A DNA stretch of 29,734 nucleotides from a virus (IMGVR_UViG_2850756110_000009), one strand, 5' to 3'; shown: positions 1-25,165, numbered from the stretch's first letter. Numbers and translations: made by a program. Notes: a model not told the origin generated them from the sequence alone.

Positions 1-525
1 TCAACGCGGCAATAATAGCCCCAACCGAACCCAACAGGTCCCGAGCACATGCAATGCCGCTGCACGTACGTTGAGGTTTTTCTCTTCGCTGCCGTGATGA
101 AGTAACCAGAAAGAAAGTATATTTGCCAGCAACCCAGCCACGGCAATTGCCATCATCATGCCGCCCTCGACCGGACGCGGCGTGCGGAAGCGTTCTATCG
201 CCTCCCAGACAATCAAAATGGTAATTACCACGAGGGCGATGGTATTCACAAACGCCGCGAGCGTGGTCAGTCTTAGCCAACCGAAAGTGTGGCGAATGGT
301 GGGAGGACGACGTGAAAATTGCACGGCGAGTAGGGCGAAAAGCAGGGCGGCAGTATCGGTCAACATATGACCCGCATCGGCCAGCAATGCCAGAGAACCA
401 GAAAGAAAACCACCAACGACTTCTACCAGCATAAACCCGGCAGTCACGCCGAAAGCATACAACAAGCGACGAGCATTATTATCTTCTGGCAGGTGTGAGG
501 ACGTGTGTGAGTGTGAGTGCGCCAT
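1..525 (-). CDS. zitB: Zinc transporter ZitB (cation diffusion facilitator), N-terminal part; reading frame breaks near the window start
   Basis: ORF starts [27 protein letters not shown] with His-rich N-terminus and CDF-type TM helices. The last 13 codons diverge and a stop falls at 1-3; adding one C to the C3 run at 40-42 restores the conserved CDF motif [17 protein letters not shown]. Confidence 0.85.
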
Positions 526-629
526 GACGAGTCATCCCTTAATTATTCTCACTTAACTGTAAGCGTACAGCCTGAACCGTCTGGTCAGAATCTGACGAAT
601 TAGACAAAGTGGTGTCCACCAAATAAGTA

Positions 630-1031
630 GTGGGAACCAAAGTGTCAGATATGCAGAAAAATGTGAATCCCGGCAGGCGAAAAGGCTGCCCTAATTATCC
701 TCCCGAATTTAAACAGCAGCTCGTTGCTGCCTCCTGTGAACCCGGGATATCCATCTCAAAACTTGCTCTTGAAAATGGCATTAACGCCAATCTGTTGTTC
801 AAATGGCGACAACAATGGCGCGAGGGAAAGCTGCTATTACCTTCTTCAGAGAGCCCCCAGCTACTTCCTGTGACTCTCGATGCAGCTGCCGAACAGCCAG
901 AATCGCTCGCAGAGGATCCGGAAACCCTCAGTATCAGCTGTGAGGTAACGTTCCGGCACGGGACGCTCCGCTTCAATGGCAATGTCAGCGAAAAGCTCCT
1001 GACTCTGCTGATACAGGAACTGAAGCGATGA
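630..1031 (+). CDS. IS66-family accessory protein TnpA (orfA)
   Basis: 133-aa ORF in first position of the three-gene IS66 arrangement; identical protein in all three copies. Confidence 0.8.
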   Translation: MGTKVSDMQKNVNPGRRKGCPNYPPEFKQQLVAASCEPGISISKLALENGINANLLFKWRQQWREGKLLLPSSESPQLLPVTLDAAAEQPESLAEDPETLSISCEVTFRHGTLRFNGNVSEKLLTLLIQELKR

Positions 1032-1375
1032 TCCCGTTACCTTCCGGGACCAAAATTTGGCTGGTTGCCGGTATCACCGATATGAGAAATGGCTTCAACG
1101 GCCTGGCGGCAAAGGTGCAGACGACGCTGAAAGACGATCCGATGTCAGGTCACGTTTTTATCTTCCGTGGGCGTAATGGCAGTCAGGTAAAGCTCCTCTG
1201 GTCTACCGGCGATGGACTGTGTCTGCTGACCAAACGGCTGGAGCGCGGCCGCTTCGCCTGGCCGTCAGCCCGGGATGGCAAAGTGTTCCTCACACCGGCA
1301 CAGCTGGCGATGCTCCTTGAAGGTATCGACTGGCGGCAGCCTAAAAGACTGCTTACGTCCCTGACTATGTTGTAA
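1028..1375 (+). CDS. IS66-family TnpB (orfB)
   Basis: 115-aa ORF MIPLPSGTKIWLVAGITDMRNGFNGLAAKVQ; its start overlaps the orfA stop, as expected for IS66 orfB. Confidence 0.85.
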   Translation: MIPLPSGTKIWLVAGITDMRNGFNGLAAKVQTTLKDDPMSGHVFIFRGRNGSQVKLLWSTGDGLCLLTKRLERGRFAWPSARDGKVFLTPAQLAMLLEGIDWRQPKRLLTSLTML

Positions 1376-1423
1376 GCCTCTTTATCCTGGTCGACGCTGA
1401 ATGAGCCTGGTAATATACCCGGT

Positions 1424-2962
1424 ATGAGCAGCTCACTTCCTGACGATATCAATGCACTGAAACGTCTCCTTGCCGAACAGGAGGCGCTGAACCGTGCCCT
1501 GCTGGAAAAGCTGAACGAGCGTGAACGCGAAATAGACCATCTGCAGGCACAGCTGGATAAGCTGCGCCGGATGAACTTCGGCAGCCGCTCCGAAAAAGTC
1601 TCCCGTCGTATCGCACAGATGGAAGCTGACCTGAAGGCACTTCAGAAAGAAAGTGATACCCTTACCGGTCGGGTTGACGACCCGGCCGTGCAGCGCCCGC
1701 TGCGTCAAACCCGCACCCGCAAACCGTTCCCCGAATCACTCCCCCGCGATGAAAAACGGCTGCTGCCGGCAGCGTCATGCTGCCCGGAATGTGGAGGCTC
1801 ACTGAGCTATCCGGGTGAGGATGCCGCCGAACAGCTGGAGTTGATGCGCAGCGTCTTCCGGGTTATCCGGACTGTACGTGAAAAGCATGCCTGTACTCAG
1901 TGCGATGCCATCGTGCAGGCCCCCGCGCCTTCACGGCCCATCGAGCGGGGTATCGCAGGACCGGGGCTGCTGGCCCGCGTGCTGATCTCAAAGTATGCAG
2001 AGCACACCCCGCTGTACCGCCAGTCTGAAATGTACGGCCGCCAGGGCGTGGAGCTGAGTCGTTCACTGCTGTCGGGCTGGGTGGATGCATGCTGCCGGCT
2101 ACTGTCACCGCTGGAAGAAGCGCTTCAGGACTATGTGCTGACTGACGGTAAGCTCCATGCTGATGACACGCCTGTCCCGGTGCTGTTGCCAGGCAATAAG
2201 AAAACGAAGACCGGGCGGTTATGGACCTACGTTCGTGACGACCGTAACGCCGGGTCAACGCTGGCGCCGGCGGTGTGGTTCGCTTACAGCCCGGACAGAA
2301 AAGGCATCCATCCGCAGACCCATCTTGCGGGGTTCAGTGGTGTACTGCAGGCGGATGCATACGCCGGGTTCAACGAGCTGTACCGGGATGGCCGGATAAC
2401 GGAAGCCGCCTGTTGGGCTCACGCCCGCCGTAAAATCCACGATGTGCACGTTCGCACCCCGTCAGCCCTGACGGAGGAAGCGCTGAAACGGATCGGCGAA
2501 CTGTACGCCATCGAGGCAGAGATAAGGGGAATGACGGCGGAGCAGCGCCTTGCCGAACGTCAGTTGAAAACGAAACCGCTGCTGAAATCCCTGGAAAGCT
2601 GGCTGCGTGAAAAGATGAAAACCCTGTCGCGACACTCAGAACTGGCGAAAGCGTTCGCATACGCCCTGAACCAGTGGCCGGCGCTGACGTACTATGCAGA
2701 TGATGGCTGGGCTGAGGCGGACAATAACATCGCTGAAAATGCGTTGCGGATGGTCAGTCTGGGCCGCAAAAACTACCTGTTCTTCGGTTCGGATCATGGA
2801 GGAGAGCGGGGAGCGCTGCTGTACAGCCTGATCGGGACGTGCAAACTGAACGGAGTGGAGCCAGAAAGCTACCTCCGCTATGTACTTGACGTCATAGCCG
2901 ACTGGCCGATAAACCGGGTCGGCGAACTGCTCCCCTGGCGCGTAGCACTGCCGACTGAATAA
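1424..2962 (+). CDS. IS66-family DDE transposase TnpC (orfC)
   Basis: 512-aa ORF with the CWAHARRK region typical of IS66 transposases; intact in all three copies. Confidence 0.9.
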
Positions 2963-2999
2963 CACATCCCCGTCAATACGGTTCTTGCTGCACGCTTAC

Positions 3000-3007
3000 G
3001 ATTTTGC
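3000..3007. repeat. Half of a split 8-bp target-site duplication GATTTTGC (partner, inverted, at 28473-28480)
   Basis: Octamer beside the right end of IS66 copy 1 equals the reverse complement of the octamer beside the left end of copy 3. Confidence 0.85.
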
Positions 3008-23949: not shown

Positions 23950-23952
23950 ATA

Positions 23953-24028
23953 TGGTGCCGACTACCGGAATCGAACTGGTGACCTACTGATTACAAGTCA
24001 GTTGCTCTGCCTGCTGAGCTAAGTCGGC
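23953..24028 (-). tRNA. tRNA-Thr (anticodon UGU)
   Basis: 76 nt; acceptor stem GCCGACT/AGTCGGC; anticodon arm ACTGA-CTTGTAA-TCAGT; T-loop TTCGATT; 3' CCA encoded. Confidence 0.85.
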
Positions 24029-24030
24029 GC

Positions 24031-24107
24031 TGGCCCACCACCGAGGACTCGAACCTCGCACCGTCAACTTAGAAGGTTGATGCTCTATCCGGATGAGCTA
24101 GTGGTGG
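24031..24107 (-). tRNA. tRNA-Arg (anticodon UCU)
   Basis: 77 nt; acceptor CCACCAC/GTGGTGG; anticodon arm TCAAC-CTTCTAA-GTTGA; T-arm CGAGG-TTCGAGT-CCTCG; CCA encoded. Confidence 0.8.
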
Positions 24108-24108
24108 T

Positions 24109-24185
24109 TGGTGGCCCTTGCTGGACTTGAACCAGCGACCTGGCGATTATGAGTCGCTCGCTCTGACCAACTGAGCTAAAGGGCC
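24109..24185 (-). tRNA. tRNA with CAU anticodon, ileX-like (probably tRNA-Ile2, lysidine-modified; tRNA-Met not excluded)
   Basis: 77 nt GGCCCTTTAGCTCAGTTGGTCAGAGCGAGCGACTCATAATCGCCAGGTCGCTGGTTCAAGTCCAGCAAGGGCCACCA, very close to E. coli ileX; anticodon loop CTCATAA. Confidence 0.75.
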
Positions 24186-24265
24186 GGAGGCAGAATAATA
24201 ACCATATGTCATCACATCTGCAAACTCATCTGACCACCAGCACGTTTAACGTCCTGTGCCGTTTT

Positions 24266-25165
24266 TCATTTCAGGTATAAAAAAACCCGCATAAAGCGGG
24301 CTCTTTCAAATGTCCATGTGAAGTGGTCAACAAAAACTGGCCACCGAGTTAGAGTTTTTCCAGTATCGATTTTCCGATTCGTTTGGGGTAACCCACCGTT
24401 ATATTCGTGCGGTCTTAGTGCGCTGTAATATCCAACGATATAGTCCGTTATGGCGTGAGCTGCCTCGCTGAAGCTTACGTAACCCACCACCGGCATCCAT
24501 TCGTTCTTCAGACTCCTGAAGAAGCGTTCCATTGGGCTGTTATCCCAGCAGTTTCCGCGCCGGCTCATACTCTGTCTGATCTGGTATCGCCACAATAACT
24601 GCCGGAACTGCCTGCTCGTATAATGACTGCCCTGATCGCTGTGGAACATCACCCCGCCGGGCTTACCACGGGTTTCCCATGCCATTTCCAGCGCTTTCAT
24701 GGTGAGCCTGCTGTCCGGCGAGAACGACATGGCCCAGCCCACTGGTTTTCTTGCGAACAGGTCGAGAACAACGGCGAGGTACGCCCAGCGCTTACCCGTC
24801 CAGATACAGGGCACATCACCGCACCACACCTGATTTGGCTCGGTCACGGCGAACTGCCTTTCAAGGTAGTTAGGGATAGCAACATGTTCATGACCACCAC
24901 GTTTATACCGGTGAGTCGGCTGCTGACAGCTGACCAGCCCCAGCTCTTTCATGAGCCTGCCAGCAAGCCAGCGTCCCATCTGGTAGCCTCTCCGGGTTGC
25001 CATTGTGGCGATGCTTCTTGCTCCGGCCGAACCATGGCTGATGCCATGTAGCTCAAGTACCTGACTGCGTAATACAGCCCGTCTGCCGTCTGGTTTTTCA
25101 GGACGGTTTTTCCAGTATCTGTAGCTGCTGCGATGAACCCCGAACACTTGGCAGAGTGTGACCAC
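24266..25165 (-). CDS. IS911 OrfB transposase frame, C-terminus frameshifted in this copy
   Basis: DDE transposase frame. Its end reads ...[13 protein letters not shown]..., whereas the truncated copy reads ...[25 protein letters not shown]. The difference is G4 (24385-24388) versus C5 (23287-23291) in the same homopolymer. Confidence 0.8.
24279..24302 (-). terminator. Intrinsic terminator on the minus strand, candidate lambdoid tR'
   Basis: Minus-strand hairpin AGCCCGC-TTTAT-GCGGGTT followed by a T7 run (+ strand A7 at 24279-24285), immediately upstream of the tRNA cluster in transcription order. Confidence 0.6.

Follow-up and report, generated by a model that had tools for sequence, protein, structure and literature searches.

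Ten one-base shortfalls in C and G runs of a Shigella dysenteriae prophage remnant are very probably long-read consensus errors rather than mutations

The sequence considered here, called the window throughout, is the whole of a 29,734-nucleotide stretch catalogued as viral (IMGVR_UViG_2850756110_000009). Its open reading frames (ORFs) and similarity searches identify it as a segment of an Escherichia/Shigella chromosome, and exact-protein look-ups followed by alignment of three loci (L010, L016 and L027, with 0 mismatches and 0 gaps) match it at 100% identity to the 4,609,265-bp Shigella dysenteriae chromosome CP026805.1 (GCA_002949415.1). Between the chromosomal zinc-exporter gene zitB at the left and the 3' part of an ipaH gene at the right lies a myovirus-type prophage with tail and head-tail-joining genes, interrupted by insertion sequences (ISs; Table 1). 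The reading frames of zitB, six prophage genes and orfB of a full-length IS911 appear broken, and in each of them, as well as in one intergenic spacer, alignment to related assemblies locates at least one run of C or G that is a single base short. These ten runs are the subject of this report.

A near-identical strain of S. dysenteriae was assembled independently, and its contig UYIT01000003.1 (GCA_900618175.1) spans the whole window. Base-level alignment of the two yields two substitutions and ten gaps of one base. It is the window that lacks the base in 10/10 gaps (two-sided P about 0.002), and each gap falls in a C or G run. In the 18,032 bases outside ISs there are nine gaps and not a single substitution. 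All nine of these gaps lie in G/C runs of at least four bases, which occupy 2.9% of the bases (P about 1e-14), and 0/182 A/T runs of at least four bases are affected (P about 2e-4). The share of non-IS G/C runs that are short climbs with the presumed true length of the run, from 0/1,856 for three bases or fewer through 2/83 for four, 2/27 for five and 2/4 for six to 3/4 for seven. Addition of one base to each of the ten runs converts the window exactly into the UYIT01 sequence, bar the two substitutions. The repaired window gives a single full-length alignment for the tail fibre, the gpW-like sheath initiator, the SLT/tape measure protein and the 194-aa (hyp195) and 112/115-aa (hyp116) proteins; ZitB becomes 313 aa, and the sheath remnant, split by an IS66 element, becomes one continuous stretch.

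Table 1. Homopolymer runs, other sequence lesions and genetic elements of the window
Feature	Coordinates	Strand	Details
Run in zitB	40..42	-	C3, probably C4; 313-aa ZitB split into 174 + 139 aa
Run in tail fibre gene	5929..5934	-	C6, probably C7; 461-aa protein split into 369-aa and 157-aa ORFs
Run in sheath initiator (gpW-like) gene	10119..10122	-	C4, probably C5
Run in tape measure/SLT transglycosylase gene	14524..14529	-	C6, probably C7; 673 aa split into 99-aa and C-terminal pieces
Run in spacer between 134-aa and 60-aa genes	15017..15021		G5, probably G6; non-coding
Run in sheath (DUF3383) gene, site 1	16987..16990	-	C4, probably C5
Run in sheath gene, site 2	17242..17244	-	C3, probably C4
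Run in 194-aa virion gene	21728..21733	-	G6, probably G7
Run in 112/115-aa gene	22726..22730	-	C5, probably C6
Run in IS911 orfB, near 3' end	24385..24388	-	G4, probably G5; ORF runs out of the element to 24266
gpJ (baseplate J/gp47-like) lesion	9490..9501	-	4-bp loss, one CTGA unit of three
Tube gene lesion	15612..15613	-	G3 to G2, -1 frameshift; gene also split by IS1
DUF4054 variant	22045..22049	-	C4 to C5, +1 four codons before the end; 151 aa instead of 152
zitB	1-525	-	zinc exporter, chromosomal
IS66-family copy 1	559..2999	+	between zitB and N-terminal half of DUF4376 tail gene; ORFs of 133, 115 and 512 aa; present in sister assemblies
Myovirus-type prophage, tail and head-tail-joining genes	3000-22838	-	interrupted by IS2, IS1 and IS66 copy 2
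IS2	7048..8377	+	within DUF2612 (wedge) gene; real disruption; same site in lineage assemblies
IS1	15714..16481		within tube gene, with target duplication; same site in lineage assemblies including AKNG01000058
IS66-family copy 2	17795..20235	-	within sheath gene; direct 8-bp duplication GCATCAGC; same site in all covering lineage assemblies
Truncated IS911	22843..23357	+	replaces ~6.8 kb of head, terminase and lysis genes; carries the 5-base run
Holin gene, then four tRNA genes	tRNA cluster 23875-24185		after truncated IS911
Full-length IS911	24319..25566	-	1,248 bp in the record, 1,249 bp once the absent G is supplied; terminal repeats TGAAGTGG / CCACTTCA
IS66-family copy 3	26032..28472	-	contains both substitutions relative to UYIT01 (26333, 27894)
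Right end			C-terminal part of DUF4376 tail gene, then 3' part of ipaH gene

The initial annotation of this DNA had named nine homopolymer runs as the seats of the frame breaks and had proposed sequencing under-calls of a long-read type as their cause. All nine runs are present with the positions, bases and lengths it gave, and at seven of them (40-42, 5929-5934, 10119-10122, 14524-14529, 16987-16990, 22726-22730 and 24385-24388) base-level alignment indeed locates a one-base difference, with the longer run in the relatives. The remaining two were mis-assigned. An A4 run at 17221-17224, held responsible for the second break in the sheath gene, does not deviate from A4 among the assemblies where it could be located, and the affected run is the C3 at 17242-17244; a C3 run at 9471-9473, offered as a way to mend gpJ, is C3 even in intact references, the cause there being the loss of a CTGA unit at about 9494-9501. 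The list was also incomplete. The shortened runs at 15017-15021 and 21728-21733 were overlooked, as were the tube change at 15612-15613 and the C5 at 22045-22049. Aligned to the window, the proteins of the intact prophage in strain VL46 reproduce the breaks it had reported in the tail fibre, gpJ, gpW-like, SLT, sheath (two) and 22.7-kb genes, and add those in the tube and 194-aa genes. Runs of three or more bases number 1,481 in the window, about one per 20 nt. A homopolymer at which a break could be mended is therefore nearly always close by, and such a repair does not discriminate, which explains the two mis-assignments. The proposed cause fared better; the differences are one-way G/C deletions, linked to one batch of assemblies and homoplastic, and the longer runs stand in independent and draft assemblies, as set out below.

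The sites were compared at the same loci in 12 other S. dysenteriae assemblies that have large contigs and belong to this prophage lineage, 13 with the window's own. The assemblies of one accession batch (CP0268xx and PSSx01; n = 12) each contain 0 to 21 shortened G/C runs, and together they hold only one G/C run that is longer and two A/T runs that are altered. CP045784, AKNG01, ABLFSF01 and the Logan assembly ERR126951 have zero shortened G/C runs. At every one of the ten sites that it covers, CP045784 has the long form, as do CP026807, CP026819 and PSSQ01 within the batch; the remaining batch assemblies possess individual sets of 2 to 21 shortened runs. A four-gamete test applied to this lineage found no failure in 120 pairs of informative substitutions, a perfect fit to a tree, whereas 46 of 105 pairs of run-length variants failed. 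Two of the window's short runs, those in the gpW-like and SLT genes, recur in CP026877, a batch assembly whose prophage belongs to another lineage.

This distribution bears on the proposal that the ten differences are real, strain-specific frameshifts, with slipped-strand mispairing having knocked out zitB and the genes of the prophage in the course of Shigella genome decay. The proposal has an obvious appeal. Pseudogenes do accumulate in Shigella genomes, replication slippage favours homopolymers, and this same prophage contains real frameshifts in gpJ and the tube gene along with four IS-disrupted genes. Yet decay would have had to leave ten indels and no substitution in 18 kb relative to the closest assembly, to produce only deletions and only in G/C runs though A/T runs are more numerous, and to strike a non-coding spacer as well as genes. 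It would also have had to place identical alleles in unrelated sub-lineages and in a different lineage while remaining within one batch of assemblies, at odds with the tree on which all substitutions agree, and the long runs are found in draft contigs from near-identical strains. Genuine decay is thus a very improbable source of the ten differences. Inherited changes are expected to be shared in accordance with the tree and to be present in accurate assemblies; this is what is seen for the 4-bp loss in gpJ, the G2 of the tube gene and the additional base in DUF4054, and it is not seen for any of the ten runs.

Two further biological candidates were rejected. A mutator history fits badly with the absence of substitutions and of A/T-run changes outside the ISs; defects in mismatch repair should also leave many transitions and changes in A/T runs. 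Programmed ribosomal frameshifting suits the orfA/orfB junctions of IS911, IS2 and IS1 and none of the ten sites, and the candidate A6G slippery motifs of IS911, at 25237 and 25484, are a long way from its short run, which is close to the 3' end of orfB.

Draft contigs, retrieved through proteins encoded in the window, supply a further view of the sites. They are bounded by ISs and for this reason are taken to be short-read assemblies, and they display the long form at nine of the ten sites, all but zitB (L020-L022, L036-L038, L047 and L048). The tail fibre run is C7 in seven long assemblies, in three 4-kb draft contigs (L036-L038) and in CP176669; one of these drafts, L036, differs from window positions 3003-7238 (4,236 bases) solely by the additional base of this run. 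Exact-protein counts are equally lopsided, with the 461-aa tail fibre in 41 contigs and the 369-aa form in one. The gpW-like run is C5 in the references from enteroinvasive E. coli (EIEC), UYIT01, CP045784, AKNG01000058, the Logan contig SRR34853668 and CP176669, and C4 is confined to batch assemblies, CP026877 among them. The SLT run is C7 in both L047 and L048. The 673-aa SLT protein was encountered in 132 contigs, the 99-aa fragment in 10, and nine of the latter are large contigs, eight of them from the batch; one of these eight is CP026877, in an otherwise intact prophage. In the spacer, G6 is present in the EIEC references, UYIT01, CP045784, L047, L048 and CP176669, and G5 or G4 is again limited to the batch. 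AKNG01000058 and the Logan contig SRR34853668_228 have the long form at 10119, 14524 and 15017, and AKNG01000058 has it at both sheath sites.

For the sheath gene, site 1 is C5 in 10 of the 13 lineage assemblies, in AKNG01000058 and in CP176669, and C4 only in CP026805, CP026832 and CP026825; site 2 is C4 in the EIEC references and in each of the other 12 lineage assemblies with coverage there. In the 194-aa gene, G7 is found in UYIT01, CP045784, AKNG01, ABLFSF01 and Logan ERR126951 (intact protein in 109 contigs, 110-aa fragment in eight), and in the 112/115-aa gene every other assembly has C6 (112-aa protein in 66 contigs, 68-aa fragment in five); at each of these two sites the long form occurs in three drafts. 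The IS911 run is G5 in UYIT01, CP045784, AKNG01, CP026807 and CP026819, AKNG01 being the draft among them, and G4 only in three batch assemblies. The window holds its own control for this site in the truncated IS911 copy, whose 5-base run the initial annotation had rightly pointed out. For zitB, finally, the run is C4 in UYIT01, PSSQ01, PSST01 and CP026819; ZitB has 313 aa at locus L003 as against 174 + 139 aa at L010 (CP026805.1), and the exact 174-aa product occurs in one contig, the window's own, compared with nine contigs for the intact form. Overall, the broken protein forms are present in 1 to 10 contigs each, mostly long-read contigs of this batch larger than 1 Mb, versus 9 to 132 contigs for the intact forms.

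Two of the broken products were also met with elsewhere. Outside NCBI, truncated gpW and SLT products were found solely in the Logan contigs SRR17645344_3435 (L023) and SRR34940150_623 (L033), which are 1.3-1.6 kb in length, have four and one shortened G/C runs, respectively, and probably originate from long-read sequencing with many errors.

Shortened runs could in principle arise in living cells if G/C tracts slipped in the manner of phase variation, so that cultures were mixed and the consensus recorded the shorter sub-population. Tracts of six to seven G or C are the most affected here, and such tracts are the most prone to slippage in vivo. Against this, tracts of four to five bases were hit too, the sole +1 G/C variant among the lineage assemblies is a C8 in PSST01, no assembly from elsewhere than the batch shows variation in the tracts, and the sites lie dispersed across gene bodies, with no link to 5' gene ends or promoters. 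Mixed cultures therefore seem extremely improbable as a general explanation.

It is also conceivable that the window is right and that the other assemblies over-call. Nothing specific favours this idea, beyond the fact that over-calling occurs in some technologies, as with the A/T runs of CP091398. The long forms restore full-length proteins in 8/8 genes, co-linear with the intact proteins of the EIEC prophage, as random over-calls would not, and they appear in at least five accession series in addition to the intact EIEC prophages; the probability of over-calling is practically negligible. CP091398 itself (L024), from another project and another lineage, has five shorter and two longer A/T runs and three shorter G/C runs. 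Its error profile is nanopore-like, and some of its differences could be real, the lineage being different.

The probable source of the window's own assembly would be in keeping with an error of technology. Papers credit CP026774-CP026786, CP026832 and CP026878, in the passages that mention them, to the PacBio sequencing of 59 historical Shigella strains (Kim et al. 2018). CP026803/4 and CP026811/12, which bracket CP026805, are Shigella flexneri strains listed from the USA, and CP026805 would belong to the Kim et al. submission because the flanking accessions in the block do; its position in this accession block suggests a PacBio-only project. Neither CP026805 nor UYIT01 nor the sister accessions are named in any paper or supplement among those searchable. 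One passage of Yassine et al. (2022; PMC8795385) states that the Shigella genomes of Kim et al. (2018) had not undergone short-read editing, contained numerous homopolymer indels and were on that account left out of core-genome multilocus sequence typing. In the same vein, the portion of the ARAMIS paper concerned with residual errors (PMC8574707) describes those left in PacBio RS II assemblies of mid- and high-GC genomes as deletions of G and C in homopolymers. An artefact of this type is ordinary and has already been reported for this genome batch.

We therefore regard the ten shortfalls, with a probability of about 95%, as consensus errors of an unpolished PacBio long-read assembly and not as mutations of the organism. 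The chemistry and the consensus caller would tend to drop a base from runs of C or G, with a risk that increases with run length, and an under-call within a gene would shift the frame, so that gene callers would deliver two fragments or a pseudogene. The physical cause suggested by the published error profile is under-calling of homopolymer pulses. It follows that the eight broken-looking genes, zitB included, are almost certainly free of these frameshifts and intact in this respect. The initial annotation had cautioned that the runs were insufficient grounds for calling these genes pseudogenes, and the full-length proteins recovered upon addition of the bases bear this out.

Several points weigh against the attribution to consensus error. 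The evidence at each site is indirect, since it comes from other assemblies, whatever technology lies behind UYIT01, CP045784 and the drafts, and not from the sequenced strain's own reads; UYIT01 itself may represent that strain or a very near relation of it. Membership of CP026805 in the PacBio project rests on its accession block and not on a document naming it. For zitB, the longer run was seen in assemblies with long contigs, of which three or more belong to the batch itself, and agrees with the protein counts; no draft contig that was read shows it. Moreover, slippage mutations that are real also prefer homopolymers, and since the prophage is decaying, with two real frameshifts, the ten might conceivably include one or two genuine mutations. 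There is a slim chance that a minority of the ten, for example the zitB C3, the sheath C3 and the hyp116 C5, which were seen only in this assembly, represent real recent slippage or culture heterogeneity in an archival strain; zitB would then be a true and newly formed pseudogene.

The reading of the ten runs as consensus errors does not make the prophage functional, as other lesions in it are of a different kind. Every lineage assembly has the CTGA deletion in gpJ, as do the drafts L047 and L048; the EIEC references lack it, and the 150-aa product is encoded by 150 contigs (221 index blocks), mostly of 5-10 kb; this deletion is a true pseudogenising mutation. In the tube gene, G2 is present in 13/13 lineage assemblies, G3 in the EIEC references and in CP026877. 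L047 and L048 match the window at both lesions, which confirms that the two are real. The +1 in the DUF4054 gene offers a useful contrast to the artefacts. C5 is seen in all S. dysenteriae assemblies, three drafts included, the exact 151-aa form was found in 77 contigs, and the change is a real homopolymer polymorphism, fixed in S. dysenteriae, that alters the last four residues only. Other 151-aa forms of DUF4054 are common in S. flexneri and S. boydii.

Wherever a lineage assembly covers them, the IS66, IS2 and IS1 elements sit at identical positions, and target-site duplications directly flank IS66 copy 2, IS2 and IS1; IS66 copies 1 and 3 share one duplication, split between them. The initial annotation had set these insertions apart as genuine disruptions, and rightly so: being shared throughout the lineage, like the gpJ deletion, the tube G2 and the DUF4054 C5, they are inherited and real. 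EIEC strains VL46 and VL40 carry intact copies of the prophage that are ~99% identical to the window's. Relative to such a copy, ~6.8 kb (L001 21593-28388) is gone at window positions 22838-23370, where the truncated IS911 now stands, and with it the capsid, portal-like, terminase and lysis genes. This loss prevents the lineage's prophage from forming particles, however the frameshifts are judged. The prophage is really defective, through the gpJ -4 and tube -1 frameshifts, four IS-disrupted genes and the IS911-associated ~6.8-kb deletion.

The window appears to have been rearranged as well. IS66 copies 1 and 3 are inverted relative to each other, each with one half of the 8-bp target duplication GATTTTGC (or its reverse complement) at 2999-3007 and 28473-28480, and each bears one half of the DUF4376 gene (3415..2999 and 28443..28685). 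This configuration indicates that recombination between the two IS66 copies inverted the intervening ~23 kb, and sister assemblies have differing arrangements at these copies. At the two substituted positions within copy 3, UYIT01 agrees with CP176669 and not with the window, and the difference could be due to cross-copy mixing of the consensus in a repeat or to gene conversion. The tRNA cluster between the two IS911 copies reads Gly(tcc), Thr(tgt), Arg(tct) and Met/Ile(cat); its first member is annotated as tRNA-Val in VL46, and a 1-nt indel separates VL46 from the window at 23881.

These findings are of practical rather than biological value. Read literally, the record would contribute eight spurious pseudogenes in 30 kb, zitB among them, and inflate counts of Shigella decay. 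The sheath fragments produced by the artefact (window 16652-17038 and 17130-17789) hold RefSeq accessions of their own, WP_284529209.1 and WP_284529210.1, as 'DUF3383 domain-containing protein [Shigella dysenteriae]'; assembly errors are therefore already in protein databases. For this prophage remnant next to ipaH, the analysis tells real damage (in gpJ, the tube gene and the genes that IS66, IS2 and IS1 interrupt, and by loss of the head module) from apparent damage, and it suggests a simple rule for genomes of this batch, namely to be wary of every -1 frameshift that falls in a run of four or more C or G.

Among known phenomena, the closest counterpart is the residual error of unpolished PacBio RS II assemblies (PMC8574707, PMC8795385), with which the window shares one-base deletions in G/C homopolymers, a genome of ~50% GC, the involvement of a minority of runs and the resulting split gene predictions. 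Nothing of substance sets the two apart. A statement by the ARAMIS authors (PMC8574707) holds that longer homopolymers do not mean more errors, whereas here the risk climbs with run length, from 2/83 four-base to 3/4 seven-base runs. Shigella pseudogene formation is represented in the same organism and the same prophage by real examples (gpJ -4, tube -1 and the IS66, IS2 and IS1 insertions), and the ten run differences depart from it in that they are not inherited by descent, are missing from the drafts and are tied to a batch. The phase-variable tracts of Neisseria, Haemophilus and Campylobacter likewise undergo one-base changes in G/C tracts that switch the reading frame. In contrast to those tracts, the runs in the window are only four to seven bases long, are scattered through gene bodies and one spacer, change almost exclusively in one direction and are invariant outside the batch.

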